From a virus (lineage: Duplodnaviria; Caudoviricetes): a stretch of DNA of 64,000 bases. The position numbers were made by a program, and so were the translations under genes. The notes under the pieces were generated by a model. That model did not search any database, was not told the origin of the DNA, and worked only from the letters and a program-made list of their open reading frames with translations. Each line of letters starts with the position of its first letter. The stretch's first letter is position 1. The DNA lies in the IMG/VR virus record IMGVR_UViG_3300032295_003840, positions 32,001-96,000 of that record; one strand, given 5' to 3'. Of this stretch, positions 5,110-37,703 are shown piece after piece.

Positions 5110-5140
5110 TAACTATAACAAAAGACATCAATCGGACTAA

Positions 5141-6555: not shown

Positions 6556-6630
6556 ATGTTCTAGTTGATACATACGTGTACATCTTTTTGGAGATGTATT
6601 TTCTGCCCTTTAAAATTTTAGGAGAAGTCA

Positions 6631-7173: not shown

Positions 7174-7189
7174 CCGTCAAGGAGGTACC

Positions 7190-7489: not shown

Positions 7490-8163
7490 TGCGCTGGTTA
7501 GTCGTACTGTGCCTGGTGATGTCCTGCCAGGCACAGGCCCTGACTGCACGCAGCTGGTTGATTACCGATACTGACTTAAATGTGCAGTCTGGTCATAACT
7601 ACCGTGAACTGCGCAGCATTGCCAGTCTGACCAAGCTACTAACTGTCATGGTCTCCATAGACGATGGCACTGCCAGACCCGAGCTGGTTAAACTGGCCAT
7701 GGTGAACAGCAGCAATTCAGCAGCCACGCAGCTCTGTAAAAACTACAGTCGTGGTTATCAGGCCTGCATACGAGCCATGAACGAAAAGGCCATGCGGTTG
7801 GATGCCTGGAATACCTATCTCTATGACTCTACAGGACTGGATCGACGCAACCGCAGCACAGCACAGGACATAGCACGCATTGTACTGGCGGCCAGAAACT
7901 ATGCACAGATAGTTGAGTCTAGTCATATACTCAGAGATCGTAAAAAGAAAATGGTGCTGAAGAATACCAACCCCTTGGTAGGCACCTTCAACACCACGGT
8001 TAGCAAGACAGGCTGGACCATGGCTGCTGGTGGTTGCATAGCAGTGCTCATAGAAAATCGCATCTATGTCCTGCTGGGCAGTCGCAACACCAAGACTCGA
8101 GTCACTGAACTTGCTCAATTGGTACGGGCAGAGGGAGTCGAACCCTCAAAACTCGGATTTTAA
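7489..8163 (+). CDS. Peptidase S11 (D-Ala-D-Ala carboxy/endopeptidase, PBP-like), secreted
   Basis: Signal peptide, SxxK (ASLTK), SxN (SSN) and KTG motifs. Confidence 0.85.
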   Translation: MRWLVVLCLVMSCQAQALTARSWLITDTDLNVQSGHNYRELRSIASLTKLLTVMVSIDDGTARPELVKLAMVNSSNSAATQLCKNYSRGYQACIRAMNEKAMRLDAWNTYLYDSTGLDRRNRSTAQDIARIVLAARNYAQIVESSHILRDRKKKMVLKNTNPLVGTFNTTVSKTGWTMAAGGCIAVLIENRIYVLLGSRNTKTRVTELAQLVRAEGVEPSKLGF

Positions 8164-8195
8164 GTCCGATACGTATACCATTCCGTCATGCCCGC
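8120..8195 (-). tRNA. tRNA-Leu(TAA), short variable loop
   Basis: Cloverleaf, anticodon arm tcgga-ctTAAaa-tccga, TTCGA T-loop, CCA end. Confidence 0.88.
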
Positions 8196-8199
8196 AATT

Positions 8200-8276
8200 T
8201 GGTCTCCGTAGCAGGGTTCGAACCTGCGACCCCCAGTCCCCCAGACTGGTGCGCTACCGGGCTGCGCTATACGGAG
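8200..8276 (-). tRNA. tRNA-Pro(GGG)
   Basis: ccagt-ctGGGgg-actgg, CCA end. Confidence 0.9.
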
Positions 8277-8846
8277 TTAATTCCAGTTGGTCGGAGCGCC
8301 CTGCAGGCCTGGATTGCCTCCCTCGGCGCGACTGCGTTTTAAAACTTCTTCCAGCAGTATAGGGCGGAAGTCGGTCTGTTCAACACAGACGCAGAAGTAA
8401 CGCAGATCAATTTCCTGATTGTCTAGACGCACACGCTTTTCATGCGTGTGTCCATGAATGTTCAGACCAAAGCGACCATGACTTTCAGGATGCAGGGGTA
8501 TGTGACTTAGTATGACACCTGCACCTGTCATGACATGATAGGCTCGGATGTCTCGAAAGTACTTGGTGTAGTCTTCGAGCTTGAAGATGTCGTGGTTGCC
8601 CTTGATCAGCACCTTGTCGCCGTTGAGACGATCCAGCGTGCTGAGTGCCCGACGATTGATCACCACGTCGCCCAGATGATAGACCTTGTCGCCAGGTCGT
8701 ACTGCGTCATTCCAGCGACGCACCATCTCATCATCCATTTCTTCGGGCGTGTCCCAGGGACGAAGCTTGGTACCATCCTGGCGTGTAAAACGGCATACGC
8801 CCAGATGACCAAAATGTGTATCACTTACTAACCATACTGCAGGCAT
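8277..8846 (-). CDS. Calcineurin-like metallophosphoesterase
   Basis: DTHFGH, LGD, GNHD, SH and HGHTH motifs. Start MPAVWL. Confidence 0.9.
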   Translation of the reverse strand: MPAVWLVSDTHFGHLGVCRFTRQDGTKLRPWDTPEEMDDEMVRRWNDAVRPGDKVYHLGDVVINRRALSTLDRLNGDKVLIKGNHDIFKLEDYTKYFRDIRAYHVMTGAGVILSHIPLHPESHGRFGLNIHGHTHEKRVRLDNQEIDLRYFCVCVEQTDFRPILLEEVLKRSRAEGGNPGLQGAPTNWN

Positions 8847-8865
8847 TTTATACTCCTGTTGATTG

Positions 8866-9804
8866 TCAAGGTGCTTCGCCGAATCTGGGTCGATCCAGCA
8901 ACAGATCAGTTGTTGGATTCCAGACACCGGATATGTTCCAGTCTGTGCTGACAGCACCAACTGGTAGTCGACCTGTGCTGAGGTTCACCATGGCGCTGGT
9001 CATGGTATCGCGATTAGCAAAGTTTAAATGGAAACTGGCCGGCCCGCGTCGATACTTGGTTATGTCGAATCTCTTGGCCACCCAACGCCCACCAATATAT
9101 TCTCCAAATACTTCAGGTCCCAGTATGACATCGTCCAGCATGACATGATCGGCGACGCGCATGTCGGCATAGGGTGTTGACCCATAGATGCCTATGTAAT
9201 TGGCGAAAGTAGGGTTGTTCATATATCCATTGTTGCCCAGCGTTGGCTGTGTGTTGACGTTTAAATTGGTCTGACGTTCTCCATTGACCCACAGACGTAC
9301 ACGATCAGTAATGGCGGCATTGTTGATGTCCGCAGTTAAATGTACATTGTGCCATTGATTCAGGGGCCAGGCCTTGTTGGTAAGTATTCTCCAACGAAAC
9401 ACCGACGACACATAGGCATAGGCATCAATGGTGCCAGTGGTAGTAAAACCAATGTTGTCATAGTTACCAGATGAATTGTAGGCTGCCATGAAGTAGTTGT
9501 TGCCGACAAAACTCAGTTGCTTGACCCAGACATTGATGGTATAGGTCTGTGCATTGGCACCTGCAGGACACAAACGCACCAGATGCTGACTGGCCCGGGC
9601 CGCTGTGAACTGTATGCTGGTCGGTGGACGATAGCTGGCTTGACCATCAAAGCTGTTGAAACTCACAGGGCTGGTATCGCCAGGTAATCGATCCAGTGTG
9701 TCTAAAACTCTGGGATCACCCAGAGACACAGGTCCAGCACCCAGAGCCAGCTCGTTGCGCAGATCGTCGAAGCTGTACTGCTGTCCAGGTTTATTTAATG
9801 CCAC
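8866..9804 (-). CDS. LamG/concanavalin-like lectin domain virion protein
   Basis: YTINVWVK, WHNVHL and RLWVNG beta-sandwich motifs. Probable GTG start at 9804. Confidence 0.65.
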   Translation of the reverse strand: MALNKPGQQYSFDDLRNELALGAGPVSLGDPRVLDTLDRLPGDTSPVSFNSFDGQASYRPPTSIQFTAARASQHLVRLCPAGANAQTYTINVWVKQLSFVGNNYFMAAYNSSGNYDNIGFTTTGTIDAYAYVSSVFRWRILTNKAWPLNQWHNVHLTADINNAAITDRVRLWVNGERQTNLNVNTQPTLGNNGYMNNPTFANYIGIYGSTPYADMRVADHVMLDDVILGPEVFGEYIGGRWVAKRFDITKYRRGPASFHLNFANRDTMTSAMVNLSTGRLPVGAVSTDWNISGVWNPTTDLLLDRPRFGEAP

Positions 9805-10315
9805 GACGTAACTCCTGCACCTGTTGATCCAGTTCCTGTATGGCAGCAATCAGCAGAGGCACCAGACGTTCGTAGCGCACAGTAAGGTACGCTGGATCCA
9901 CGGGTGCGGGTGCTACTGCCTCGGGCAGTTGTTGCTGCACCTGCTGAGCACTGACACCTACTTCGCGTACTGCAGGATCATAGCCCAGCCCAGCTGCGGT
10001 CTCGTTGGCATGATAGTAAAATGCCGACAGTGCACGCACACGCTGCAGAGCGTCTTCGATGCCGCCTAACTGTGTCTTGAGACGTTCATCAGAATAGTAG
10101 GCTGTGATGTTCTTCGTGGCCAGTATCTCACCAGGCACGCCGATGTGATCAGTACCAACACTCAGACTATTCAGAAACACCTGAGGATCATTGCTGGTGG
10201 GTATGGCAGTGCGCACCTGTTGCTGCTGAATTCTGGGCGCAATGGCCGAACCCGCGGCTGGCACTGTTGACTGATAGCTTGGCTGAAACTGTTTATTGCT
10301 GGTTGTATTGGGCAT
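9791..10315 (-). CDS. Short tail-fibre protein with an intramolecular chaperone (peptidase S74) domain
   Basis: YYSDERLK, VGVSAQ and YERLVPLLIAAIQEL coiled coil. Confidence 0.8.
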   Translation of the reverse strand: MPNTTSNKQFQPSYQSTVPAAGSAIAPRIQQQQVRTAIPTSNDPQVFLNSLSVGTDHIGVPGEILATKNITAYYSDERLKTQLGGIEDALQRVRALSAFYYHANETAAGLGYDPAVREVGVSAQQVQQQLPEAVAPAPVDPAYLTVRYERLVPLLIAAIQELDQQVQELRRGIK

Positions 10316-10340
10316 GGCTTACTCCTGACAGATTATCAGG

Positions 10341-10348
10341 TATTTATC
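10341..10348 (-). promoter_or_regulatory. Putative late promoter
   Basis: GATAAATA about 25 nt upstream of the ATG at 10315, which has an AGGAG RBS. Confidence 0.5.
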
Positions 10349-10424
10349 TGGCGCGGCTGGCAGGAATCGAACCCACATCGGACGCTTTAGAAGAGCGTTG
10401 CCTTATCCATTAGACCACAGCCGC
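10349..10424 (-). tRNA. tRNA-Arg(TCT)
   Basis: acgct-ctTCTaa-agcgt, CCA end. Confidence 0.9.
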
Positions 10425-10429
10425 GTTGT

Positions 10430-10834
10430 TCATCGAGTCAGTTCGCCCAGAGCTCGATATCCCTTGTAGGTGGGATGCACACCGTCGGCACTGATGTTGG
10501 ATTCTGGTCTGAGAATAATGATGTCAGTGAACTCAGTGGCAACCTTGGTCACAGCTTCTACCTGCTTGGGCTTGAGACGAGCGCTGGGCAGAATCCAAAA
10601 AACTCGATCTGCCTTGGCATTGGCTCGAAGTTTCCTAACATTGGCTTCGGTGTCCACACCCAGGTCATTGGCACCCAGACTGATGATCAGAGTACGTGCT
10701 GGTTTCAGTTTGTGCAGATGCAGCTGATTCCAATTTGCAGAGTTGATGCCACTCTTGGCAATGCTCTGACATTCAGTGCGGACCTGACTTACTCCTACGG
10801 CGATGCTATCGCCTACGATTAGACATTCTATCAT
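10430..10834 (-). CDS. SGNH/GDSL hydrolase
   Basis: GDSI, SG, GAND and DGVHP blocks. Confidence 0.85.
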   Translation of the reverse strand: MIECLIVGDSIAVGVSQVRTECQSIAKSGINSANWNQLHLHKLKPARTLIISLGANDLGVDTEANVRKLRANAKADRVFWILPSARLKPKQVEAVTKVATEFTDIIILRPESNISADGVHPTYKGYRALGELTR

Positions 10835-11304
10835 GCTACTCTCAATCCTTTGAATCGATCCGCAGCATAGCTGGCAGCAAATGCTCGGGGTTTAACCATG
10901 GGCACGACGTTGCAGGTGCCGCGAATGTAGCCAACAGCTTCGTTGATTACACAGCTGGAACCATGAAGCTCGTCAGGGTTGATGTCCAGATGTACTTCGA
11001 CCCGACGATCCTCCAGCACGTCATGCAGCTTTTGATACAGTTCAGCAATCTTGTAGACTTCATTCATGAGCCGCATGCGCGGACGAGCCTTTTTCTGATC
11101 CCAGTCACGCTCACGGCTTACTTCGCCAAAAATCTTGCAGCCATTGTTGCCGTTGATGTGCACTACAATGACCATGATGTAGTCTGCGTACCAGTCATTG
11201 CCAATCTTGATGCGCTCACTGTCGCCACCGATGTAGATCTTGGTGTCGGGAGTCTGTGCTTCAATGAAGCCTCGTACTTGTTCAATGTCAATAACTGGTC
11301 GCAT
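10831..11304 (-). CDS. RNase H-like YkuK/DUF458 family protein
   Basis: IYIGGDS, RLMNEV, EVHLDIN and ASYAAD motifs. Confidence 0.8.
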   Translation of the reverse strand: MRPVIDIEQVRGFIEAQTPDTKIYIGGDSERIKIGNDWYADYIMVIVVHINGNNGCKIFGEVSRERDWDQKKARPRMRLMNEVYKIAELYQKLHDVLEDRRVEVHLDINPDELHGSSCVINEAVGYIRGTCNVVPMVKPRAFAASYAADRFKGLRVA

Positions 11305-25409: not shown

Positions 25410-25916
25410 TTAAGATTTGCGGGTGCGCGACCACCAGTCTTCCCAGGGGAAGACGACCCACTCAGAGTCTTGATCTTCGCTGATGTGATTGCCCACGAAG
25501 TCAAATTCCTCTTGGCTGCTATACTTTTCTAGTAAGACAGCATAGCGGATCTCACCCAGGTGGATGTCGTCAGCCTCCATGGTGGCAATGATGCTCTTGA
25601 GCTCGGCCAGAGTTCGGCCTGTGTCATTGATGTCATCCACAAACAGTATGGCACCTTCCATGCTGGCTCTGCTCAGACTGTTCATGATCATGGTCTTGGA
25701 GCGAGGATAAGAGTGTGCGTGGTCCCGAGTACTGAGCTCTATGGGAAACAGCGGAACGTCATAGTAATGACTAAGCATGGTGCCTATGCCCAGGCCACCA
25801 CGACTTGGTGCAACTATGGCCGCAGGTTTAAAATCGTGACTGGTTGCTTCACGAATGACATTGGACAACAGAGATCTAACTTCACTATCACTTACATACC
25901 TACGTTTAATCATCAC
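25410..25916 (-). CDS. Purine phosphoribosyltransferase (Gpt-like)
   Basis: SRGGL, PRPP-binding FVDDINDTGRT, WVVFPWE motifs. Confidence 0.88.
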   Translation of the reverse strand: MMIKRRYVSDSEVRSLLSNVIREATSHDFKPAAIVAPSRGGLGIGTMLSHYYDVPLFPIELSTRDHAHSYPRSKTMIMNSLSRASMEGAILFVDDINDTGRTLAELKSIIATMEADDIHLGEIRYAVLLEKYSSQEEFDFVGNHISEDQDSEWVVFPWEDWWSRTRKS

Positions 25917-26548
25917 AACTCCATCAAGTTATCAACAAATTCCAATAGTAAACGGTTATCTAATCCGCCATGCCAATGTGGCTTTAAATACTTGGGTCGA
26001 TCATACCAGTAGGGCTGGCTTTCAGGATGACATCCAATCAAGCCTATTTTGTTCTGAATAATGGCCATGGGGTAGCCTGTGGCATAGGTGGCATAGACAT
26101 CTTGTTCCCCACCAATAAAAGTACAGCCATCATAAAAATACATACGAGTCAGATTGCCTTGCCAATTTACTGGCATGGCCTTGGGGTGAGGACGACGAGT
26201 GTCTGTACCTGGTTGAGTAATATATTGTTCTACTCTGGTTTCTTTCAGTATGTCAAAATAGTATTGGTCTGCCCAATAGGCTCCCATGCAGATGCCAATA
26301 TAACGACCACCCCTTTGAATGTATTCTTGTATACGCGGCTTGTGAATCTGTGCCACTTTTTCAAATTTATCTGAGTCTCCAATACCACCAGGAAATAAAA
26401 CTGCGTCGACATCGTCGAAGAAGTCATCTTCCATTGCATTTTTGCCAAACAACTTGAAACGATATTTACCTTCTAATGAAGCAATGACACCATTGCTGCA
26501 CTGAGCATCACAGGTAGGCTCGTGCATGTATAGGGCTATGCGTTTCAT
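25913..26548 (-). CDS. Class I glutamine amidotransferase-like (BPL_N-type) protein
   Basis: FPGG, YIGICMGAY nucleophile elbow, CHPE. Confidence 0.8.
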   Translation of the reverse strand: MKRIALYMHEPTCDAQCSNGVIASLEGKYRFKLFGKNAMEDDFFDDVDAVLFPGGIGDSDKFEKVAQIHKPRIQEYIQRGGRYIGICMGAYWADQYYFDILKETRVEQYITQPGTDTRRPHPKAMPVNWQGNLTRMYFYDGCTFIGGEQDVYATYATGYPMAIIQNKIGLIGCHPESQPYWYDRPKYLKPHWHGGLDNRLLLEFVDNLMEL

Positions 26549-26781
26549 GATCTGGTTATAACCAATATTCGGTCAATCTGTCGCTGTATTACTGCTTCGC
26601 GATTAGGCCAATGGATATAGGCCTTGTCTGGATTCTTCTGCAGGTTGCGTAACAAGGGCATGATCAAGGACTCAACCTGTTGTAGTTTAGTCTTGGTTTC
26701 ATCTACCTCGGCCTGTACTGCAGTAGGATCGAAATCTACAGCGGTAAAACCAAAATCATCGCCTAGATCTTCGTCTATCAT
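26545..26781 (-). CDS. Conserved T4-like hypothetical protein
   Basis: DFGFTAVD ... NPDKAYIHWPNR. Confidence 0.7.
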   Translation of the reverse strand: MIDEDLGDDFGFTAVDFDPTAVQAEVDETKTKLQQVESLIMPLLRNLQKNPDKAYIHWPNREAVIQRQIDRILVITRS

Positions 26782-28499
26782 TTTTGTGCTATCCTCGAGA
26801 AATTTTGATATTTTTCAAATTTAATTACTGAACGGAACTTGTCAAACAACTGATCGCCTTTGTGGCTAATGACAAACACATTGGTATCTTCGCCCAGAGT
26901 GTTCAGTACATTCATCAGATAGTCTGTGCCGTTGATGTCCAGACTTGAGTCAAATACTTCATCTAATAGCAGCAGATTGGTGGCTGCTGAGTTCTTCATC
27001 TTGGCTATGGTGCGCCAGGTAAACAGCAGAGCCAGGTCAATACGCTGCTTTTCGCCTTCACTGAAGCTGGCATAGCTAAAGTCATCGCGATGTCTGCTCT
27101 TGATGGTTTCATTGAAGGCTTCGTCTAATTCAAAGCTCACAAAGAAGTCCATGGCATTCAGGTATTTATTCACCAGTTTGTTGATGGCTGGCAAATACTG
27201 ACGTATGACCTTGGTCTTGATGCCAGTGTCTTTGAGCAGATTGCTGGCTATATCCTGATAATACTTCTCTTCACTCAGGCTAGTCTTTTCCTGTGTCAGG
27301 GCTACAACCTCTCGAGCCAGCCCACGAAGCTTGCTCTTCTCTTCATCCAGATTGTCTGTGGTGCCTGTGTGTGTATTGAGTTCAGCCTGCAGTTTCTGAA
27401 TATACTTCTGGTTGGCAATGATGGCATTGTTGTAGGTAATGATTTCCTGATTGTGTTCGGATATCTGTGTGGAGGTGTCGTGTATGATGTCCAGACGTTG
27501 CTGTACAATGTCAATGTTGTTGCTCAGAGCAGTCAGTGCCTGCTGTATTTCTTCCATCTTGGAATTCTGTGCTGCTATGGCCTCGGTCTTCAACTCATGT
27601 GGCAAACCCTGCTGACAAGTAGGACAGTTGTCATTGTCATGATAGAAGGCAATCTCTGTCTGTGCCTTGGCTATCTTTTCAGTCATCTTGCGCTGCAGGT
27701 CTGCCAGTGTGCGCGCCTTGGCAATCTGACTATCCTCATCATTGATCTGAGACCGCAGTGCATGTACCTGTGCCTCTAACTTGATGACTGCTGAGTTGGA
27801 AAAATCAATCTCTGTGGCAGCCTGGTCAATGTTGTTCTGAATTTCCTGGCTGCGGTTCTGATGATCTACTTCCAGAGTCTTGATATATTCGTTCTGTATT
27901 CTGACTCGTTCTTTCTGCACGTCGATGTCAGACTCTAGCTGCCTAAGTGAATCTCTGAGCTGGTTTTGACGATCCTTGAGCAGCTGGTTCATGGCAGTAA
28001 AGATGCGTATGTCCAGCAGGTCCTCGATGATCTCTCGACGATGTGATGGTGGTAACTGCATGAACGGAGTAAAGCTAGCACTGCCCAAGATAACAATCTG
28101 AGTAAAGCTCTTGTAGTTCAGCTTCAGTATATGCTCTTCCAGATAGCGTTGATAGTCTCGGCTATCGGCCTCCTGATTAAGGAAGTTACCGTCGACATAG
28201 ATCTCAAATCTGGATGGCTTGTGTCCACGCACAATGCGATAGTCGCGACGGCCTATGCTGAACTCTACCTCGACCAGAAGATTTTTCTGATTGATGCTGT
28301 TCAATAGCTGTGGCTTGCTGATGTTGCGAAAGGCCTTGTTGAAGAGCGCAAAGCAGATGGCATCCAAGATGGTGCTCTTGCCTGCGCCATTCTCACCAAC
28401 AATCAGAGTAGTGTTGGTACGATCCAGCTGTACCTCTGTGATGGCATTGCCAGTGCTTAAAAAATTACGCCAGCTTATCTTCTTGAATTTTATCATCAA
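26778..28499 (-). CDS. 46: Recombination endonuclease subunit gp46 (Rad50/SbcC-like)
   Basis: GENGAGKS, Zn-hook CPTC, FSEGEK, LDEVFD motifs. Confidence 0.96.
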   Translation of the reverse strand: MMIKFKKISWRNFLSTGNAITEVQLDRTNTTLIVGENGAGKSTILDAICFALFNKAFRNISKPQLLNSINQKNLLVEVEFSIGRRDYRIVRGHKPSRFEIYVDGNFLNQEADSRDYQRYLEEHILKLNYKSFTQIVILGSASFTPFMQLPPSHRREIIEDLLDIRIFTAMNQLLKDRQNQLRDSLRQLESDIDVQKERVRIQNEYIKTLEVDHQNRSQEIQNNIDQAATEIDFSNSAVIKLEAQVHALRSQINDEDSQIAKARTLADLQRKMTEKIAKAQTEIAFYHDNDNCPTCQQGLPHELKTEAIAAQNSKMEEIQQALTALSNNIDIVQQRLDIIHDTSTQISEHNQEIITYNNAIIANQKYIQKLQAELNTHTGTTDNLDEEKSKLRGLAREVVALTQEKTSLSEEKYYQDIASNLLKDTGIKTKVIRQYLPAINKLVNKYLNAMDFFVSFELDEAFNETIKSRHRDDFSYASFSEGEKQRIDLALLFTWRTIAKMKNSAATNLLLLDEVFDSSLDINGTDYLMNVLNTLGEDTNVFVISHKGDQLFDKFRSVIKFEKYQNFSRIAQK

Positions 28500-28624
28500 A
28501 TCCGACCGTCTAAATCTAATTGTTTATGACAACGTTGACAAGCCCAGAATCTGGGAGATCCGACTTTATCGGGACGATATGGTCGATGTCCAAAAATTGC
28601 ACAGAGCAGACGTCTAAGGTACAT
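28496..28624 (-). CDS. Tiny Cys/His protein (42 aa)
   Basis: MYLRRLLCAIFGH...CQRC; fills the gap between gp47 and gp46. Confidence 0.5.
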   Translation of the reverse strand: MYLRRLLCAIFGHRPYRPDKVGSPRFWACQRCHKQLDLDGRI

Positions 28625-29679
28625 TACTCCTCCGAATTTTGTGCTTCTACATAGAGCTCACGCATCAGGTTCTTGATTCGAGTTTTATCGGCATCGGTTT
28701 CTGTGCTGTCAACAAAGCTGTTGAGCAGGCTCATGGTATCTTCAATGTTGAGATTTTCATCGTCCAGAGCATCGCTTTCAAACTCTGAAAAGTCTTCAAT
28801 GATTTTTAATTCTAGCAGATTTTGTTTATAAAGTCTATCTACCAGCTGGTCAAACTTATAAAAGTCTGTCTTGTTGGCAACAATGAGCTTGACATTCTTT
28901 TCTGCATACTGTGCTGCATCTATGGTGTCAGGATCGGTTTCTGCATCATCATAGACCAGACGCATAAACATACGATATGGATTTTCTACGAACTGTAGGT
29001 CCAGTGTTTTAGTATCAAAGATATGAAAGCCTCGGGGATCGTCAAAGTCACTCCAGGTTAGCTCATAGGGATTGCCCAGATACTGTATGTTGCCTTTGCG
29101 ACTACGATGATGGAAATGACCACTGCACACCAGATCAAACTTGTCAAAGATCTTTGGATCCATGCCACCTTCGCTCTGCTGTCCTTTGTGCATGACAAAG
29201 CCAGCCAACTCTAGATGCCCAAACAGTACAGGTGCTGTGCTGTTCTTGATGGCATCCATGCACTCAGCATAGTTGTCAGCACAGATCCAGGGCATCATTA
29301 GGATGCTGGTATGATCTAATTGCAGAGTGTCTGGGCTGGCATAGGTAACAATGTTGGTATAGTCATTGAGCAACAGATCAGGACTATTTACATCGTTGGT
29401 ATTTTTAAAATAGGTGTCATGATTACCGGCCATCATGTGAACATTGATGCCGTTGTCTGCCATCCTATTGAAGAAATAGTCTCGGCAGTTTTTTAGAATA
29501 TTGAAATTAATATACTTACGACGGTCAAAACAATCGCCAAGGTGAATGACAGTAGTAATATGTTGCTGTGTAAGTGTTGGAAAAAAGACTTCATCGTAAA
29601 ATTTCCTAAAAAAGTTATCAAAGGGTAGACTATCTGACCTGGCCCCAAAGTGCGTGTCGGTTATCAATGCAATTTTCAT
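28624..29679 (-). CDS. 47: Recombination endonuclease subunit gp47 (Mre11/SbcD-like)
   Basis: DTHFG, GDCFD, GNHD, SGHFH motifs. Confidence 0.96.
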   Translation of the reverse strand: MKIALITDTHFGARSDSLPFDNFFRKFYDEVFFPTLTQQHITTVIHLGDCFDRRKYINFNILKNCRDYFFNRMADNGINVHMMAGNHDTYFKNTNDVNSPDLLLNDYTNIVTYASPDTLQLDHTSILMMPWICADNYAECMDAIKNSTAPVLFGHLELAGFVMHKGQQSEGGMDPKIFDKFDLVCSGHFHHRSRKGNIQYLGNPYELTWSDFDDPRGFHIFDTKTLDLQFVENPYRMFMRLVYDDAETDPDTIDAAQYAEKNVKLIVANKTDFYKFDQLVDRLYKQNLLELKIIEDFSEFESDALDDENLNIEDTMSLLNSFVDSTETDADKTRIKNLMRELYVEAQNSEE

Positions 29680-29860: not shown

Positions 29861-30379
29861 TTACCCCTCATAGGTAGCACTGTTGGCGTTGTGTTCAAAT
29901 ACTTCTACACTGCGTAGTCTTACTCCCTGCCCTACTGGATATCTGGCTTTGAAGACATTGCCGTTGGGGCAGTAATATTCATTGCCATTTTTAAAGATGT
30001 GCAGTATAGTAGCCATTTCTTTATAGGCAAGCTCGGCAAACTTTTCACAACCTACACCTTCGACAATGCGAAGGTCGCAGACGCCGCCCTGATCCTGCAG
30101 ACCCAGACTGGACATCTTCTCAAACATTTCCAGATGTGGATCGTCTTGGGCAATGACCAAGGTATGGTCAAACATATACTCTGACCATTCTTTGAATGCC
30201 TTGAGTCCACCAAAGTCCATGACCCAGTTACGGTCATCCAGAGTTTCGCTTTCAAAGACTAACTTAATGCCAATGCTGTAGCCATGCAGCAGACTGCAAT
30301 GACTGTGACTTGACCGCCACTGACGGAAACAGCAGCTCAGACCGCGGTCATTACCATAAACTTTTGTGCTTAGGTACAT
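29861..30379 (-). CDS. queD: 6-carboxy-tetrahydropterin synthase QueD
   Basis: CxxLHGY, DFGGLK, FDH motifs. Confidence 0.88.
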   Translation of the reverse strand: MYLSTKVYGNDRGLSCCFRQWRSSHSHCSLLHGYSIGIKLVFESETLDDRNWVMDFGGLKAFKEWSEYMFDHTLVIAQDDPHLEMFEKMSSLGLQDQGGVCDLRIVEGVGCEKFAELAYKEMATILHIFKNGNEYYCPNGNVFKARYPVGQGVRLRSVEVFEHNANSATYEG

Positions 30380-30391
30380 TTTATCTCCTTA

Positions 30392-30862
30392 CTACTTTAT
30401 ATTATTGTATATTGTCTGTGGTGCAGAGTCAATATTATCCAGACGATTTTTTTCTATGTTGTAGACTCGTTGCCGAAGTTCGGTGGTGGAAAAACTATGC
30501 TTGCGATCATTGAAGTAGAATTCAATACCACGGTTTAAACATTCAGTCTTGCCAGTAAAGTCACGTCCCTGATATTCCACACCCAGAATGCGAATGTCTA
30601 TGGGATAGCTTAGGAAGATGTCAATGAGTTCTTTTTCGGTGCTGTACACCACAATTTCATTGACATACTTGCAGGCATCAATCTGAACAAATCTTTCAAA
30701 TACACTTTGTATGGGTTTGTTCTTTTCTGTGGGGCGATCTATGGTAGGATCGGTCTGCAGACCCACAATTAAATAATCGCATTGGCGCCGTGCTTCTTTG
30801 AGCATGGTGACATGACCTGCATGAAACAGGTCAAAGGTTGAACAAGTAAAACCTACTTTCAT
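30392..30862 (-). CDS. Cytidylyltransferase (TagD-like)
   Basis: FDLFHAGH (HxGH), LIVGL, RKHSFSTT motifs. Confidence 0.87.
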   Translation of the reverse strand: MKVGFTCSTFDLFHAGHVTMLKEARRQCDYLIVGLQTDPTIDRPTEKNKPIQSVFERFVQIDACKYVNEIVVYSTEKELIDIFLSYPIDIRILGVEYQGRDFTGKTECLNRGIEFYFNDRKHSFSTTELRQRVYNIEKNRLDNIDSAPQTIYNNIK

Positions 30863-30863
30863 G

Positions 30864-31925
30864 TTATACCTCTAGGATTTTATCAATCATGATGTTGGCA
30901 TTCATGAAACGATCGATGAGGATTTGCTGCTGTTCCTTCAGCAAAGTCAGGAACTGTTCACGATTGTGTACTCTGTGTGTAATAAAGGATTGGATGTTGT
31001 CGCGATTCTCGACATAATTTTCCCAGCTACTGGTCCAATGACTGGGATACTTGAACTCGGGCAAATACATTTCAGCATAGCTGGCACGATCAGGAACAAC
31101 TGGTATGGCACCTGCCAGGGTTCCTTCCATGACACTGATGCCCAGATTTTCATGCAGAGCACAACTAAAAATAATGGCGGCCTGTCCCAGAGTGGTATAG
31201 TAATCGTCTTTGCTGAGATTCATCTTCTGAGTAATAACCAGATTAAGATGGTTAGACAGATCCTCGGCAATCTCAGGTTGCTTATCTGAGTTATAACGAT
31301 GTGGCCACATTACCACAGGATATTTTTCCGCAGACTGTTGTGCAACCAACATGTTGACGATAAAGTCATGCGGCTGGCCAGAACGATATGCTCGTCGATC
31401 AGTATAACTGATGGCCAGGTTTTCAAGAAACATATCTTTGTGAAAGTCTGTGGCAAAGTAATTATAGTCACAGGCATAGTACCAGGCGCGTTCCTGATTG
31501 GAACTCCAGCCTTTGCCCATCTTCATACCCAGGATGTCAGTTGGGTCATAGGCACCTGCATGCCAGATGCCATGAATCTCTACTGGTATGTCCAGCAGAT
31601 CCGACATATAACGTATGGCAGTAATGACAAAGTTCCAGGCATCGGTAACCAGGAACTTATCGCCAGCTTTAATTTTGCCATGACTGAACAGAGCAGCAAT
31701 TTGTTCAACCTGCGTGGCCTTGTAGATGTTGGTTATGCCGAAGTCTAGGAAGGCACCAGTAGTGGTACCCGTCTTGGGTTGCTTGCCGTCTATGGTGACA
31801 ACATTCCAAGGAACGCATTTCTTGTCGGCAATGCGCTGGTTAATTAACTTGGGGATATTTTCATACCACTGCTTGGTATAACGCTGATCAATGGGCTCAA
31901 TGGGTACAATATAAAGTGTTTTCAT
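30864..31925 (-). CDS. GT-B fold glycosyltransferase
   Basis: WPHR...KQPE and ENLGISVMEG (Ex7E motif). Confidence 0.8.
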   Translation of the reverse strand: MKTLYIVPIEPIDQRYTKQWYENIPKLINQRIADKKCVPWNVVTIDGKQPKTGTTTGAFLDFGITNIYKATQVEQIAALFSHGKIKAGDKFLVTDAWNFVITAIRYMSDLLDIPVEIHGIWHAGAYDPTDILGMKMGKGWSSNQERAWYYACDYNYFATDFHKDMFLENLAISYTDRRAYRSGQPHDFIVNMLVAQQSAEKYPVVMWPHRYNSDKQPEIAEDLSNHLNLVITQKMNLSKDDYYTTLGQAAIIFSCALHENLGISVMEGTLAGAIPVVPDRASYAEMYLPEFKYPSHWTSSWENYVENRDNIQSFITHRVHNREQFLTLLKEQQQILIDRFMNANIMIDKILEV

Positions 31926-32692
31926 AATCTCTCAATATCAGATTCAATGCAACGATCGCCATACTGTATTTCAACTACCTTGAGTGGCTTATCAGTTTCA
32001 TTGCAAAGCTGATGCCACTCAGTCTTGCTAATATGTATGTGGTTATGCTTATTATAATATCCCAGCAGCTCTGCGTCGGTAGTGCGTTCATCGATTGTAT
32101 ATACCGTGGCTGTACCTTCGGCCACAAACCAATGCTCGGCTCGATCCTGATGTCGCTGCATGCTTAATCGTTCGCCAGGATTGACTGTGAGCTCTTTGAC
32201 CTTGGTATTGTCACCTACCTCATGCAGTACACGATAATAGCCCCAGGGTCGATCTGTCTTGGGTGCTTTCCATTCTTCCAGGATCCAGCTTGAGCTGTTG
32301 GCCTTGTCTTCTCCGCCTACGCCAAATTCAAATACCAGATTGTCATCTTGATAGTCCATTTCAGGAATATTTACTGCGGTACGATCTCCGCCATTGGCAA
32401 AAATTAGCTGGGCACTGGGCCACATCAGACGACATTTATGAATGCAGTCCTTGCTGTTGTTGTCATCATCGTTGAACTGCATGACATAATCAACATCTTT
32501 CATGGCCTGTATGACCTTGCTGCGTTCAAACCAGGGCATGAAAGGCCGACCCTTTTTACGAGTCAGCCAGGCATCGCTGTTGATGCCTACAATTAATTTG
32601 TCGCCCAGACGTCGAGCAGCTCTGATGTAGCTAACATGACCACTGTGCAGAGGATCAAATCCACCAGTAACAATTACAATTTTTTCAGTCAT
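31922..32692 (-). CDS. Cytidylyltransferase fused to a mannose-6-phosphate isomerase-type cupin
   Basis: GGFDPLHSGH, ANGGDR; C-terminal RPWG, LSMQRH, EHW, EIQYG. Confidence 0.87.
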   Translation of the reverse strand: MTEKIVIVTGGFDPLHSGHVSYIRAARRLGDKLIVGINSDAWLTRKKGRPFMPWFERSKVIQAMKDVDYVMQFNDDDNNSKDCIHKCRLMWPSAQLIFANGGDRTAVNIPEMDYQDDNLVFEFGVGGEDKANSSSWILEEWKAPKTDRPWGYYRVLHEVGDNTKVKELTVNPGERLSMQRHQDRAEHWFVAEGTATVYTIDERTTDAELLGYYNKHNHIHISKTEWHQLCNETDKPLKVVEIQYGDRCIESDIERL

Positions 32693-33054
32693 GCTGTATA
32701 CTCCAGAATTGCACCATTCTCTCCATCCTCAAAGACCTGGATTGTCATGTCGCGACCAGGATAGCGTGCGGCAATGGTCTCAATTAATTCATCGGCAATC
32801 ATCTCGCAACTCTTATAGTCGAGCTGCAAAGTATTTTGTTCCCCTGAATACAGTGATTCAAGCCACCTTTTGAATTGAATAAATTCAATGTCTCGGTCGT
32901 TGTGCGTGACTGCGATGCGCACCCTGAAATGAAACATATGGCGATGAGGATAACCAAGAAACGAAACATCGGCTAGGGCAGGTTCGGTTAAGGCGGCAGG
33001 ATACTTGTGTATCCCTTCTCTTTGAAAAGTAACTTCAATCCAGCGTTTAATCAT
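32689..33054 (-). CDS. QueD-paralog T-fold protein, DpdL-like (putative CDG decarboxylase)
   Basis: LGYPHRHMF matches LxxxHRHxF; also SCE and EDGENG. Lies next to the dpdA-like gene. Confidence 0.7.
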   Translation of the reverse strand: MIKRWIEVTFQREGIHKYPAALTEPALADVSFLGYPHRHMFHFRVRIAVTHNDRDIEFIQFKRWLESLYSGEQNTLQLDYKSCEMIADELIETIAARYPGRDMTIQVFEDGENGAILEYTA

Positions 33055-34301
33055 GCGAATAAATCCTCCAGGGTATTGGGCTCAACATATTCTTGCACTG
33101 GTTCTGAATCCATGTAGGGTCCAACGTGCTTCAACCAGTGATCAAAATCCTCAGTAGTCTTAACTGAGTATAAGGCATCAAAGGCATTCCTGTCAAGTCC
33201 TTTGGCAAACTTCAGCACCTCTTGCTGACTCTTGCTGACTCGATCTACCTGTTCGATAAAATTCTTGATAGACGAACTTACATAGGCAACATAGAGCTGC
33301 ATGCTGGGATCGATGCTGCCAAATTTAGTTTCATAGGTACGGCTGCTGTGATTCAGCACATTGTAGAGATCATCTACACTGTACTCAATGAAAGGAAAAT
33401 TACGCTTCATGTCATCCAGCACAATGCGATAGCTGTCGTCAAAGGCACGGGTAAAGGTAAAGGCATAGTCGTTCATGTAGTAACGACCCTGAGTCACGCC
33501 ACTGGTGTGTGTAGTGCTATCATAGCTCATATGCACATCAGCATACATGCCATTCTGAATAAAGATCAGCTGTGGCAGCATTCGATACACACTACCTACT
33601 CCCAGCAAATGCAGGTTACGATGTTCCAGATCTATGGGCAGTTGAGTAAAATAGAATGCACGCTTGATGTCTTCCAGACTGCCTTTGCCCAGCGCGGCCG
33701 CTCCCATGGCTATGCCGCCAATGTGTTTGGTATAACCAGCTGGCAATTCTTCCACGACATACTGAGTCCACTTCATGTATGAGTCATAGTCATTGCCCTG
33801 TGTAATCAACATGGGCTTGGCAGTGGTGCCTTTTTCCAGAAAGAACTCTATTTGTCTTTTAAGGTTCTTGCCAGTTGCACGAGCACAACGCTCAAGATCA
33901 GCACGGTCAAACCTTCGATTGCTAAGATCCAGACGTTCAGACCTACCATTATCAAGAGTGCGTACAGGTATAACATCAAAGCACATAGCCACATCGCTAT
34001 TTTCAGCTTGATTGGCATAGACTTCCTCCTTGAGCTCTTCTGTGATGGTGCGGCCCAGCGTCACCATCTGCAGTCCACCAGAGTCGGCATGGATGTTGTG
34101 TACTAGACCGCGATAATGGGAGCCGCACCAACGGCCAGGTCTCTTCTCAGTATAGGCATTGTACAGTAAACTGATCTTATGATTGTGCTGATCGTTGAGA
34201 CTGCCAAAGGTGCGGGTGAACCAGTCCAGGTTCTGTGGTGCCAGACTTTCTTGATACATCAATTTAAAGTAACTGGTACCACTGGCTACGTATTCAAACA
34301 T
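33051..34301 (-). CDS. dpdA: TGT-fold DpdA-like deazaguanine transglycosylase
   Basis: ADSGG, catalytic D (CFDVIP), QG, HLLGVG, YDSTT; sits in a folE/queD/queE cluster. Confidence 0.75.
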   Translation of the reverse strand: MFEYVASGTSYFKLMYQESLAPQNLDWFTRTFGSLNDQHNHKISLLYNAYTEKRPGRWCGSHYRGLVHNIHADSGGLQMVTLGRTITEELKEEVYANQAENSDVAMCFDVIPVRTLDNGRSERLDLSNRRFDRADLERCARATGKNLKRQIEFFLEKGTTAKPMLITQGNDYDSYMKWTQYVVEELPAGYTKHIGGIAMGAAALGKGSLEDIKRAFYFTQLPIDLEHRNLHLLGVGSVYRMLPQLIFIQNGMYADVHMSYDSTTHTSGVTQGRYYMNDYAFTFTRAFDDSYRIVLDDMKRNFPFIEYSVDDLYNVLNHSSRTYETKFGSIDPSMQLYVAYVSSSIKNFIEQVDRVSKSQQEVLKFAKGLDRNAFDALYSVKTTEDFDHWLKHVGPYMDSEPVQEYVEPNTLEDLFA

Positions 34302-34302
34302 A

Positions 34303-34806
34303 TTAACTTCCCAGAATTTTTATTAGGTGCTTGGTTTGTGTGATGGCGTCGTCAAGTGCATTATGATATGTTCCTTCACGTTTGTCAATGGGGATGTTGA
34401 CGATGTTCTTCATGGTGCGATAGCAACGATCTTCCCAGGGCAACCAAGGCCGCTTTCTGTCCAGAGCCTTGTAGGCACAGTCCAGGATTACATTATCAAA
34501 ACCAGCACCATTGCCCCAGGTAGGCAAACTCTTGTTGCCATACCAGGCCTCGAAGTTGGTCAGTGCTTCTTCCAGACTTAGATTATCTTTGAGCAAGGCA
34601 GCGCGAGCTTCTTTGCTTTGCTTTTGCCACCACTCCAGGGTGGACTTTTCAAAGTGCAGTCCTGCTTCTTTGCAGGTTGCAGGATCAATGGTGCAGTAAA
34701 AGGTGTCGACGATCTCACCGTCTTGCCATTTAACTGCACCAATGCTGGCAATGGCGGCATTGGGCCTGGTACTGTAGGTCTCCAGGTCAATCATTACGTT
34801 TATCAC
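34303..34806 (-). CDS. DEDDh 3'-5' exonuclease (exo VIII/Rv2179c-like)
   Basis: MIDLET, WGNGAGFD, HNALDDA motifs. Confidence 0.85.
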   Translation of the reverse strand: MINVMIDLETYSTRPNAAIASIGAVKWQDGEIVDTFYCTIDPATCKEAGLHFEKSTLEWWQKQSKEARAALLKDNLSLEEALTNFEAWYGNKSLPTWGNGAGFDNVILDCAYKALDRKRPWLPWEDRCYRTMKNIVNIPIDKREGTYHNALDDAITQTKHLIKILGS

Positions 34807-35014: not shown

Positions 35015-35286
35015 TGTATCTCCTCAAAGATGGTGCTCCAGCGTTGAAGTTTGCTGTACTTGGTGCGGGTAGCATTACGCAAAAATTCAGGGTCTATTAA
35101 TCCATTGCTCTGCATGAGTTCAATCATGCACACCAGATCGCCAACTTCTTCTTCCAGACGTTCACGATTGGTTTTATTGTCATAGGTTTCATCCAGGCCA
35201 AATCTGAATATTTTGCTGATGACCTGACTTACCTCAGCACATTCTTCCTGCGCGATTAGCAGGATTTCGCGTTGTTTATTGTTCAT
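35011..35286 (-). CDS. MazG-like nucleotide pyrophosphohydrolase
   Basis: EECAE ... EEEVGD. Confidence 0.75.
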   Translation of the reverse strand: MNNKQREILLIAQEECAEVSQVISKIFRFGLDETYDNKTNRERLEEEVGDLVCMIELMQSNGLIDPEFLRNATRTKYSKLQRWSTIFEEIQ

Positions 35287-35960
35287 TTCATTTTAGCCAC
35301 AATGTCATAAAATTCTTTTTTCAGACTTTTGTCTGTCTGAAACTTGCCGCGCATGATGGCAGTAGTCATGTCGCTCTCATGCTCCTTGACACCGCGATGA
35401 GTCATGCAGTGGTGTTCAGCCTGCACCAGTACAGCTACGCCTTCGGCCTCGGTTTCCTTCTCAATGGCGTCGGCAATCTGCACTGTCATTTCTTCCTGGA
35501 TTTGAGGACGGCTGGCAATCCAATCCGCGATGCGATTGAACTTACTAAGTCCAATGACGTTCTTTCCAGGATAGACTCCGATATAGGCACGCCCCACAAT
35601 ATTTTGGAAGTGATGAGCACACGTAGAGCGGATTGTGATAGGTCCTGTGACGTAGAGTTGATCGTATTCTGTGACATTAGGAAAAGCAGTTACTTTAGGA
35701 GGGTTCTTGTATCGGCCGCCAAAGGTTTCATGAACAAACATCTTGGCCACTCGTCGTGCTGTGTCTTGTGTATTATGATCATTATCAGTGTCAATGATTA
35801 GACTATTTAGTACGCCTTGAAACTGACAGGCTACTTCGTCTACCAGACGTTCGACTTCTTCTTCGGTTTCGATGAAGCCACTGATGTTGTCATTGCTAAA
35901 GTATCGTCCGCCACCATTCTTGATGCGCTCACGAATCACTTCACTGATATTTCTTTCCAT
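35283..35960 (-). CDS. folE: GTP cyclohydrolase I
   Basis: STCAHH, GLSKFNR, RPQIQE, HHCMTHRG motifs. Confidence 0.93.
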   Translation of the reverse strand: MERNISEVIRERIKNGGGRYFSNDNISGFIETEEEVERLVDEVACQFQGVLNSLIIDTDNDHNTQDTARRVAKMFVHETFGGRYKNPPKVTAFPNVTEYDQLYVTGPITIRSTCAHHFQNIVGRAYIGVYPGKNVIGLSKFNRIADWIASRPQIQEEMTVQIADAIEKETEAEGVAVLVQAEHHCMTHRGVKEHESDMTTAIMRGKFQTDKSLKKEFYDIVAKMK

Positions 35961-35962
35961 GT

Positions 35963-36211
35963 TCAAATCCTTTTAAAAAATTTATCTAGCCATAGTATGA
36001 CATTTTTATACCATCGTGTCAATAGCCTGTCGCGTTTTCTCAGAGTCCAGCTACCATCATGGTTGTCTATCCATTCCAGAGTGTCGCCGATCTTCCAATC
36101 TAAATCACGCAGTATTTCAGAAGGCAAGGGTACTACATAGTCACCAGTCTCATTATCATATTCGACTGTGGCAGTCCAGCTCTTATTTTCCAATGACGTT
36201 TCCAAAGACAT
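35963..36211 (-). CDS. AbrB/MazE-like small DNA-binding protein
   Basis: VVPLPSEILRDLDWKIGDTLEW pattern. Confidence 0.6.
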   Translation of the reverse strand: MSLETSLENKSWTATVEYDNETGDYVVPLPSEILRDLDWKIGDTLEWIDNHDGSWTLRKRDRLLTRWYKNVILWLDKFFKRI

Positions 36212-37094
36212 AGCAATGATTCCTTGTAGCTATTTGATAACCGCGACGCATGGCCTCCAAACAGATATCAGCAACCGCCGCATTTTCCTGCGAGTCCTTG
36301 GTGGCACCCACAGGCATGATCCAGACGTCAGGACAGTAATAACTGTTCTGACCGAACAATCTTTGCAGTCTATCAACATGGCCATCTAGCTCGGCCCAGT
36401 TGTCCGCACTGCCATTGCAGACAAACTTCAATACACCAGTGCTGAAGGTTTCAGTGACATAGTTAAAAATAACATCGTCTTTGACTGCATCTTTTTCACC
36501 TGCCACGGTCCAGAGTTTAGGACTCATGGCCCAGTGCCAACGACTACCGCCTTCTTGTGCAAATTCTTCGTTGATGAATTCACGCAGATCATCAGTCAGG
36601 GCCTTGGTGGCATTGGTCTCTACTGTGACAGTGCGGGGCAGCTGATCTCGAGCCTTGAGTTCACGCAGGATGGCCAGCATGGCCTTTTGCCACATCATGG
36701 GCTCACCGCCAGTAAAGCAAAGCTGAGTATCCTGACCAGTTACTGGATGAACCCAGTCACCTCGGGGATTGCTGCTATGACGCATCTGATCAATGAGCTT
36801 GTCACAGACCGCGGCAGCGTCGTCATCGTGCGCCAGGTGTTTGTATTTAGCACTCCAGCTGTAGCTAGAGTCACAGCCATGATCCCATACAGGTAAGTCT
36901 TCGATCTTCTTTACCTTGCTGACATCAAAGCTGGCATAAGGCAAGACATAGGTTGCGGGATTGGTTGGATCCATCTGACCAAATCCATTGCATTCTAGAT
37001 TGCATCCAAAGAACCTTAGCCAGACGCTGGGCTTGCCAGCCAACTCGGCCTCGCCTTGAAAACTATAGAAGATTTCTGAGTAACGAATTTTCAT
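36183..37094 (-). CDS. queE: 7-carboxy-7-deazaguanine synthase QueE (radical SAM)
   Basis: EIFYSFQGE, LRFFGCNLEC ... CDS, TGGEP, VETN, SPK motifs. Confidence 0.9.
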   Translation of the reverse strand: MKIRYSEIFYSFQGEAELAGKPSVWLRFFGCNLECNGFGQMDPTNPATYVLPYASFDVSKVKKIEDLPVWDHGCDSSYSWSAKYKHLAHDDDAAAVCDKLIDQMRHSSNPRGDWVHPVTGQDTQLCFTGGEPMMWQKAMLAILRELKARDQLPRTVTVETNATKALTDDLREFINEEFAQEGGSRWHWAMSPKLWTVAGEKDAVKDDVIFNYVTETFSTGVLKFVCNGSADNWAELDGHVDRLQRLFGQNSYYCPDVWIMPVGATKDSQENAAVADICLEAMRRGYQIATRNHCYVFGNVIGK

Positions 37095-37127
37095 GCCAAC
37101 TCCATTCAAGATAATACTGCCAGTATA

Positions 37128-37703
37128 TTATAGTTCAGTGTCAGGGTCAATAGTTGATTCTTCGTTCTTTTTCTTTTTTATTGCGGCTTTGGTGGCGGGA
37201 CTGACGACCTTTTCGTAATCATAGCCGTCCAGCTGATTTTTGAGATACTCCAGAAACTGATTCTGAAACTCACCGTTGTCCTGTTCCTGTGTAATGAGTT
37301 CATTGAGATCCAGTTGATCGATGTAGCGATACTTGGTCTGCAGCATTTTCTTTTCCTTCTGAATGCGTCTAATGAAGGCAAAGTAGGTAATCTGAGTAAA
37401 GTAGGCAAATGGATTTTTTGACTTGGCAGGATCAAAGTTGTTCACCACAGCCAGACAGTTCTCAATGGCGTCTGAGATCATTTCATCCTTGTAGCTATAA
37501 TTAATGAAGTTCGATTTATAGCTTAGATGGCGAGCGATTTTGATGAAACAGTCACCCAGGTAATTGCTGATGGGCGGTGGTTCGGTGCCAGCGGCTCGGG
37601 CAGTCTGCACGGCTTCGCGATGTTCCAACAATGCAGCCAGAAAGGCCTGATTATCGATATAATGATTGGCCGCAGCCTTGGTGGGTTTTGTCTGTGTTTC
37701 CAT
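37128..37703 (-). CDS. 55: Late sigma factor gp55
   Basis: HYIDN, NFINYSYKDEMISDAIENC, NPFAYFTQI motifs. Confidence 0.95.
   Translation of the reverse strand: METQTKPTKAAANHYIDNQAFLAALLEHREAVQTARAAGTEPPPISNYLGDCFIKIARHLSYKSNFINYSYKDEMISDAIENCLAVVNNFDPAKSKNPFAYFTQITYFAFIRRIQKEKKMLQTKYRYIDQLDLNELITQEQDNGEFQNQFLEYLKNQLDGYDYEKVVSPATKAAIKKKKNEESTIDPDTEL

Follow-up and report, generated by a model that had tools for sequence, protein, structure and literature searches.

A divergent phage glycosyltransferase tied to DpdL in a deazaguanine operon, and the possibility of a sugar-bearing 7-deazaguanine in DNA

The 64,000-nucleotide window analysed here (positions 32,001 to 96,000 of IMG/VR virus record IMGVR_UViG_3300032295_003840; 166,912 bp, 92% complete, from a T4-like phage) carries on its minus strand a deazaguanine operon in which a glycosyltransferase (GT) gene is embedded. 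The operon is bounded by gp55, the late sigma factor gene (37128-37703), on one side and by gp47 and gp46 (28624-29679 and 26778-28499, respectively) on the other. Its genes run, from first to last, QueE-like, an 82-aa open reading frame (ORF), FolE, two small ORFs, an exonuclease, DpdA, DpdL, a nucleotidyltransferase-cupin fusion (NT-cupin), the GT, a stand-alone nucleotidyltransferase (NT1) and QueD. The initial annotation of this stretch had described a GT-B gene between two HxGH nucleotidyltransferases, tightly packed between a dpdL-like gene and queD, and both points were confirmed. The three ORFs lie on the minus strand at 31922-32692 (NT-cupin, 256 aa), 30864-31925 (GT, 353 aa) and 30392-30862 (NT1, 156 aa), and direct reading of the sequence revealed ATGA overlaps at the DpdA/DpdL, DpdL/NT-cupin and NT-cupin/GT junctions, a 1-nt gap between GT and NT1, and a 12-nt gap containing AAGGAG between NT1 and QueD. 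A promoter scan placed a sigma70-like promoter (TTGACC-17-TATACT, 37150-37122) ahead of QueE and detected no T4 late promoter motif within the operon. In T4, as had also been pointed out correctly, a-gt is located between genes 47 and 55, the same interval as this operon. Megablast of 29861-34301 against phage records gave zero matches.

The 353-aa GT had no Pfam, NCBIfam or PHROG match above cut-off; PF00534 (Glycos_transf_1) scored 13.4 bits (E 0.004), under its cut-off. Its AlphaFold2 model (pLDDT 96.3, pTM 0.93) consists of two Rossmann-like domains with a cleft, as in GT-B enzymes. Comparison of this model with 48,161 solved chains, with which Foldseek agrees, placed GT4-type GT-B enzymes at the top, matched along the entire chain, namely sucrose-phosphate synthase 6kih (Z 26.2, rmsd 3.1, 316 aligned, over residues 1-353), BshA (6n1x, Z 25.3), LmbT (Z 23.1) and PglA (Z 22.9), and lower down pteridine glucosyltransferase (5zer, Z 20.2), the HY126 DNA arabinosyltransferase (9iqz, Z 19.9) and T4 AGT (1y6f, Z 18.5). 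A search of 1.84 billion cluster representatives (50% identity clusters) yielded at least 1,334 clusters of GT relatives, of which 196 reached an E-value of 1e-30 or lower, and the family's clusters in the ESM Atlas are 94-100% viral. In an alignment of the family (n = 121), E145 and E267 are invariant and E259, R210 and K215 are conserved in at least 90%; E259 and E267 form an E-x7-E motif, and R210 and K215 correspond to the donor-diphosphate-binding pair of GT4 enzymes. Searched against the PDB, a family profile matches the C-terminal domains of GT1/GT4 enzymes (E 3e-6). The model and the conserved residues thus identify the protein as a real but divergent GT4-like GT-B glycosyltransferase whose site for a nucleoside diphosphate (NDP)-sugar is intact. 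Because its fold and profile similarity come with no curated Pfam match, it is a divergent GT4 relative by fold, not a curated member. The family is phage-only and is found essentially only beside DpdL and large DpdA proteins.

Other identities for this protein and its matches were rejected or set aside. Orthology to T4 a-gt does not hold, as there is no sequence similarity between the two (BLASTP E 1.8) and genes for hydroxymethylcytosine supply are missing; the genome slot alone is in common. A TagF-like polyol-phosphate transferase, acting on a CDP-alcohol from NT1, was set aside since both the structural neighbours and E-x7-E point to GT4 sugar transferases. The weaker tblastn matches in Xanthomonas PhiXhv and Erwinia Ep032 phages represent a different GT, with GlmS-like and LmbE-like neighbours and without DpdL. 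In Xanthomonas PhiXhv-15 (3618-6852), this more distant GT, 25% identical across 59% of the query, lies beside a GlmS-like aminotransferase and an LmbE/BshB-like deacetylase, a cluster that may be a different sugar system.

The initial annotation had proposed examining the co-occurrence of this GT with dpdA and dpdL, and the distribution of the family revealed a strong linkage. Among 104 GT-bearing loci, DpdL was present in 102, DpdA in 94, FolE in 89 and QueE in most of the longer ones. When loci were anchored on DpdL instead, of which IMG/VR holds at least 599 and the best 80 were taken, the GT followed DpdL on the same strand in 79 of the 80, the exception being a contig that ends right after DpdL. 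DpdL also lay directly upstream in nearly all of 25 IMG/VR loci fetched by the GT, apart from one cut contig. In cultured phages, tblastn detected the GT in Sinorhizobium Phosso, eleven PA5oct-like Pseudomonas jumbo phages, Acidovorax ACP17, Xanthomonas X1 and BUDD, Burkholderia BCSR5 and Synechococcus BUCT-ZZ01, and in every locus examined from these six phage groups the GT adjoins DpdL, with FolE, QueE or QueD nearby. GT representatives with no more than 28-32% identity to the GT of the window had DpdL immediately upstream in three of four short contigs. This adjacency spans unrelated backbones, namely T4-like phages, PA5oct-like jumbo phages, Phosso, a cyanophage and a bacterial chromosome, and the GT is tied to the deazaguanine module far beyond chance. 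The DpdA proteins of these 94 loci fall into a 416-aa type (14 loci), as in the window, and a 546-aa type (80 loci) that is homologous to PA5oct EST35_0316 and carries the motif DSGGFQ. Further genes recur in the jumbo-phage form of the module: 61 loci have a member of an unnamed family of about 172 aa just upstream of DpdL, and 59 have a member of another, of 77-124 aa, between DpdL and the GT. We also observed there a cysteine-dioxygenase-like cupin in 29 loci, a queuosine-precursor transporter of the YhhQ/Vut_1 kind in 10 and an IMPDH/GMP-reductase-like gene in 7.

The bacterial copies came from a scan of one genome per species. In Magnetospirillum aberrantis SpK (NZ_JAAIYP010000038.1, 1105-10914), genes for the GT, DpdL, the 546-aa DpdA and QueD lie on a 424-kb contig directly after a gene for a 519-aa protein with a CoiA-like nuclease domain, and a HEPN protein and a two-component pair are encoded nearby. 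The same arrangement was present in related metagenome-assembled genomes, in one case on a 1.4-Mb contig. This island looks like a modification-plus-nuclease system, which favours DNA as the final target, and the M. aberrantis locus is possibly a restriction-modification-like island in a cultured organism.

The link between the two families is one-way, as DpdL also occurs without the GT. No GT family member was found in the complete genomes of the DpdL phages Cellulophaga phiST, Rhizobium RHph_I1_18, Aeromonas Ahp1 and Vibrio D479, and these four genomes likewise contained neither the 416-aa nor the 546-aa DpdA, the latter being present in the positive control Phosso. In phiST DNA, all dG is replaced by the deoxynucleoside of 7-deazaguanine (dDG), at 302,000 per million nucleotides. 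Since phiST makes dDG without the GT, the GT is not needed for dDG and represents an addition to the pathway. In RHph_I1_18 (5977-7238), DpdL is 66% identical to that of the window and is followed by a macro-domain (Appr-1-p processing) gene in the usual place of the GT.

The remaining genes of the operon are those of a deazaguanine pathway, all on the minus strand. The first gene encodes a QueE-like radical-SAM enzyme (7-carboxy-7-deazaguanine (CDG) synthase; 36183-37109; PHROG QueE-like, E 7.1e-44, with N-terminal matches to NCBIfam QueE models), followed by FolE, GTP cyclohydrolase I (35283-35966; PF01227, E 1.7e-49), and the last encodes a 172-aa QueD-type PTPS (CPH4 synthase; 29861-30379; PF01242, E 3.5e-13; PHROG QueD-like, E 2.8e-34) with the motif CSLLHGY. 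CxxxHGY, not the canonical CxxxHGH, was present in all 30 QueD homologues of related loci, and in the QueD of the window HSH stands immediately before the Cys. Between these lie a 416-aa DpdA-like DNA transglycosylase of the TGT fold with a DSGGLQ motif (33051-34301; phrog_10773, E 2.1e-92; weak Tgt models, E 2.6e-5) and a 121-aa QueD paralogue (32689-33054; phrog_17812, E 2.2e-38). DpdL is defined by the signature LxxxHRHxF and is a QueD paralogue proposed to be a CDG decarboxylase (Cui, Hutinet et al., NAR 2023, PMC10516641). The LGYPHRHMF of the 121-aa protein fits this signature, which replaces CxxxHGH and was present in 108 of 110 homologues. By this motif the protein is DpdL, with a decarboxylase activity that is proposed, and unproven in the literature too; it is accompanied here by FolE, QueD, QueE and DpdA, without QueC.

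Searches for absent genes covered the whole 166.9-kb record (92% complete). QueC had no match, whereas 13 of 14 control genomes matched, and the absence of QueC makes this a module of the QueC-less, DpdL type. The ThyA family, which includes dCMP hydroxymethylase, likewise had no match, whereas 10 of 14 control genomes matched; the observation that the window lacks a dCMP hydroxymethylase thus holds for the whole record. 5-Hydroxycytosine synthase is also a ThyA homologue (PMC13326640). With no ThyA-family gene, the phage cannot make hydroxymethyl-pyrimidine or 5-hydroxycytosine acceptors, and a pyrimidine glycosylation route of the T4 or RB69 type was rejected.

The two nucleotidyltransferases belong to the PF01467 (CTP_transf_like) superfamily, in which NT1 (HAGH and SFSTT motifs) scored 55.3 bits (E 1e-14) and NT-cupin (HSGH) 54.5 bits (E 1.8e-14) against a cut-off of 21. 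They had been called cytidylyltransferases; superfamily membership and the cupin fusion of one of them stood, but "cytidylyltransferase" applies only as a superfamily name. Among solved proteins, NT1 is closest by sequence to ethanolamine-phosphate cytidylyltransferase (ECT, E 4e-24) and glycerol-3-phosphate cytidylyltransferase TagD (E 2e-12), and the best NCBIfam model for the nucleotidyltransferases was the adenylyltransferase model rfaE_dom_II, under its cut-off. The AlphaFold2 model of NT-cupin (pLDDT 88.9) has two domains. Its N-terminal domain resembles RfaE-like 3glv (Z 14.2), TagD (Z 14.0), the Fom1 CyTase and HldC 5x9q (Z 13.7, 31% identity), and its C-terminal cupin matches phosphomannose isomerase (PMI) 7zvy (Z 13.5). 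The cupin scored 84.1 bits against PF01050 (MannoseP_isomer; E 1.1e-23, cut-off 23.6) and contains QRHQDRAEHW, which fits the type II PMI motif QRHxxRxEHW, as well as the later His residues. A manno-configured sugar is our best guess for the donor. The nucleotidyltransferase domain is of the HIGH type as in HldC and HldE domain II, heptose-1-phosphate adenylyltransferases, and the cupin is like the type II PMI at the C-terminus of ManC/AlgA, whereas the nucleotidyltransferase domain in the bifunctional GMP/PMI enzymes known so far is of another, GT-A-like kind.

Comparison across loci revealed that the two nucleotidyltransferases are lineage-specific and not core partners of the GT, so they do not form a conserved part of the operon: each was found in 12 of the 104 GT loci, and in many T4-like relatives DpdL, GT and QueD are contiguous with nothing in between. 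The NT-cupin family has more than 8,000 close relatives. Those at 69-73% identity lie mostly in unrelated phage sugar islands, which contain GT8, methyltransferases and epimerases but no deazaguanine genes; the closest ones (74-80% identity) all belong to this deazaguanine operon and immediately precede the GT, in the order NT-cupin, GT, an optional SDR epimerase/dehydratase (in one) and NT1, and the order of NT-cupin followed by GT was seen in both DpdA backbones. The genes after the GT in the other large lineage encode an SDR epimerase/dehydratase, seen in 18 loci, and a DegT-type aminotransferase, seen in 15. Overall, 36 of the 104 GT loci contained some sugar-nucleotide gene in the same-strand GT cluster, mostly directly beside the GT. 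Glucosyl- and arabinosyl-DNA systems of T-even phages likewise have lineage-specific donor-sugar genes beside one conserved transferase (PMC13326640), which the GT module resembles in its varying donor-sugar genes next to a conserved transferase.

A second sugar programme is present in the same genome outside the window (134469-134936, 138000-148000, 155000-164000 and 165977-166798). It comprises a GDP-mannose 4,6-dehydratase (Gmd, E 2.6e-140), a sugar C-methyltransferase, DUF6165, two SDRs, a methyltransferase, a thiamine pyrophosphate (TPP) enzyme (YerE-like), a DHQS-like fragment, a DegT-like gene and one GT2. NDP-mannose could be common to this programme and the NT-cupin fusion.

By homology, FolE, QueD and QueE would convert GTP to CDG. 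Since QueC is absent, the pathway would stop at CDG, with no route to preQ0, and CDG would pass to DpdL, the QueD paralogue that marks phages with 7-deazaguanine DNA; the DpdA transglycosylase would swap the base into DNA. We propose that the GT moves a sugar from an NDP-sugar to the deazaguanine-derived base, either on the free base before insertion by DpdA or on a flipped-out base in DNA, and that virion DNA would in this way come to contain a glycosylated deazapurine as a block to restriction. The donor would here be made or boosted by the two flanking nucleotidyltransferases; the fusion of a PMI-like isomerase with an HldC-like transferase points to a manno-configured hexose or heptose, and sister lineages with a dehydratase and an aminotransferase would use other sugars.

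The initial annotation had suggested that the phage makes its own activated sugar or polyol and transfers it to DNA, perhaps to a deazaguanine derivative. An NDP-sugar-type GT-B enzyme, its linkage to the module, the neighbouring sugar-nucleotide genes and the absence of the usual route to hydroxylated pyrimidine acceptors bear this out in part; that a base or DNA is the acceptor, and thus that the phage puts a sugar on a 7-deazaguanine-derived base, is a reading to which these sequences and models incline us slightly. The lack of QueC, the modified G of PA5oct DNA, the failure of DpdA and DpdL of ACP17 by themselves to yield dDG in E. coli and the viral make-up of the family also count in its favour. 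We give about an even chance to the fuller proposal that virion DNA carries a glycosylated 7-deazaguanine, which would be the first sugar-bearing purine analogue in DNA. Its sugar would depend on the lineage, coming from a manno-type NDP-sugar in this phage and being of the amino-deoxy kind in lineages whose GT is flanked by a dehydratase and an aminotransferase, and it would be joined as a C- or N-glycoside or through a side-chain-bearing DpdL product. For transfer to the free base, the co-variation with DpdA type, the acidic isoelectric point (pI) and the small-molecule structural neighbours lean in favour; the precedents of T4, HY126 and QTMAN on tRNA, and the bacterial nuclease island, lean toward transfer on DNA.

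Several observations weigh against a sugar on the deazaguanine base. Plain 7-deazaguanine (DG) has no hydroxyl to serve as an O-nucleophile, so an O-glycoside would need a different DpdL product, and otherwise the linkage would be an N-glycoside, a C-glycoside or an ester. DpdL works in phiST without the GT, with guanine fully replaced by dDG. Taking the best 80 of the DpdL loci skews that sample to close relatives of the DpdL of the window. The fold comparison does not set the DNA glycosyltransferases (Z 18-20) apart from small-molecule GT4 enzymes, which rank above them (Z 20-26). The acidity of the GT family (median pI 5.75) is, as a weak hint, unlike an extended DNA-binding surface, and the nucleotidyltransferases could instead serve the second sugar island and its GT2.

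Some of these points suit a GT that glycosylates a small pathway molecule never entering DNA, either a pterin intermediate or a deazapurine metabolite acting as cofactor, inhibitor or store. Cyanobacterial BGluT glycosylates tetrahydrobiopterin made by FolE and PTPS, and here FolE is nearby in 89 loci, DpdL is itself a PTPS paralogue, the family is acidic, and small-molecule GT4 enzymes lead the list of structural matches (BshA, LmbT, sucrose-phosphate synthase, GlgM), with the pterin GT 5zer at Z 20.2. However, BGluT is no closer to the GT than dozens of other GT4 enzymes, the GT is joined by a DNA transglycosylase (DpdA) in 94 of the 104 loci and by QueE in most of the longer ones, and the Magnetospirillum island couples the genes to a nuclease as in a DNA-marking system; we consider this explanation unlikely. 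The position of the T4 DNA glucosyltransferase in the same 47-55 interval, and the frequent clustering of phage anti-defence genes, would fit a GT that modifies DNA or protein elsewhere than deazaguanine, with DpdL merely a co-kept anti-restriction gene in an early operon. Yet 102 of the 104 GT loci carry DpdL, the adjacency persists across unrelated backbones and down to 28% identity, and the ThyA-family search revealed no hydroxymethyl- or hydroxy-pyrimidine synthase in the genome, which leaves this with rather poor prospects.

Two further explanations appear improbable to a marked degree. The GT-like protein might help to make or insert deazaguanine, by activation or hand-over, with no sugar in the final product. 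No dDG formed in E. coli from DpdA and DpdL alone, whether those of ACP17 or those of phiST, and the authors suggested that other enzymes may be needed (PMC10516641). These failures, and the co-variation of the GT with the large DpdA types, both being missing from the four GT-less DpdL phages, would agree with such a helper; full dDG replacement in phiST without the GT family, and the donor-site residues and adjoining sugar-nucleotide genes, which argue for real sugar transfer, make it very unlikely. Equally slight is the chance that the nucleotidyltransferases, and perhaps the GT, serve a cell-surface or virion glycan programme and lie in the operon incidentally. NT-cupin relatives at 69-73% identity in sugar islands without deazaguanine genes, and the sugar island of this genome itself (Gmd, sugar C-methyltransferase, TPP enzyme, SDRs, GT2), speak for it, but the closest relatives all stand directly upstream of the GT in the deazaguanine operon, the NT-cupin-GT order recurs in both DpdA backbones, and GT loci lie nearly all within the module.

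The system can be compared with the phiST dDG system (PMC10516641), with which it shares FolE, QueD, QueE, DpdL with LxxxHRHxF, the lack of QueC and a TGT-fold DNA transglycosylase; ACP17, a carrier of this GT, is counted as a DpdL phage in the same study. In contrast, phiST has no GT family member and a short DpdA3, whereas the loci studied here have a GT4-like enzyme and a 416- or 546-aa DpdA, often with sugar-nucleotide genes. The 416-aa DpdA had no match in phiST and has only the TGT-type DSGG motif in common with DpdA3, to which it is therefore not assigned. Known phage DNA glycosylation comprises the alpha- and beta-glucosyl-hydroxymethylcytosine of T4 and the arabinosyl-5-hydroxycytosine of RB69 and HY126 (PMC13326640). 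The GT shares with these systems a GT-B transferase and a sugar that differs by lineage, with the arabinosyl systems the phage-made sugar nucleotides, and with T4 the 47-55 slot. However, its similarity to the T4 and HY126 enzymes is a generic one of fold, and their base is a pyrimidine, whereas the pathway linked here is that of a purine analogue.

QTMAN (GTDC1) is a GT4-family protein. QTMAN and QTGAL mannosylate and galactosylate queuosine in vertebrate tRNA (PMC12518689; bioRxiv 10.64898/2026.06.28.735034). They are likened to the present system by description only: the sugar is placed on a 7-deazaguanine derivative already inserted in nucleic acid by a TGT-family enzyme, but they act on RNA and attach the sugar to a hydroxyl of the cyclopentenediol side chain, a group that the phage pathway does not make. 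Small-molecule GT4 enzymes (BshA/MshA, LmbT, SenB, BGluT) share the whole-chain similarity (Z 20-26), E-x7-E and the R/K donor-site motifs with the GT, but identity is about 10%, the N-terminal acceptor domain of the GT has its own conserved acidic and aromatic residues, and the genomic context is one of DNA modification.

To our knowledge, glycosylation of DNA is confined to modified pyrimidines, and none of the eight 7-deazaguanines known from DNA carries a sugar. In the literature searched, we found no paper on glycosylated deazaguanine in DNA, in agreement with the earlier remark that it is not among the known derivatives. The available evidence in part supports this system as an addition to the known deazaguanine DNA-modification systems, the linkage between the GT and DpdL families being the new evidence. 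If the proposal is true, a sugar-bearing deazapurine would define a new class of DNA base and would account for the failed reconstitution with DpdA and DpdL; DNA of this kind would be likely to withstand restriction enzymes and to affect sequencing, and the enzymes could label 7-deaza-dG DNA. It would also account for the modified G of PA5oct, a therapeutic-candidate phage. The DNA of PA5oct is resistant to enzymes for which G stands in a GA or GG context, indicating a modified G of undefined chemistry (PMC12191111).

Other genes lie within or near the operon. The Rv2179c-like 3'-5' exonuclease (34303-34806, minus strand; PF16473, E 2e-46) is kept between FolE and DpdA in T4-like relatives, at the same position in six related loci. 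Just beyond gp46 are a GATase/BPL_N-like gene (25913-26548, minus strand) and a phosphoribosyltransferase (25410-25916, minus strand; PF00156, E 1.8e-12) that often travels with the module. Homologues of the latter were present in 49 of the 104 GT loci, one of them annotated as XGPRT in BUCT-ZZ01, and the enzyme may salvage guanine freed by DpdA.

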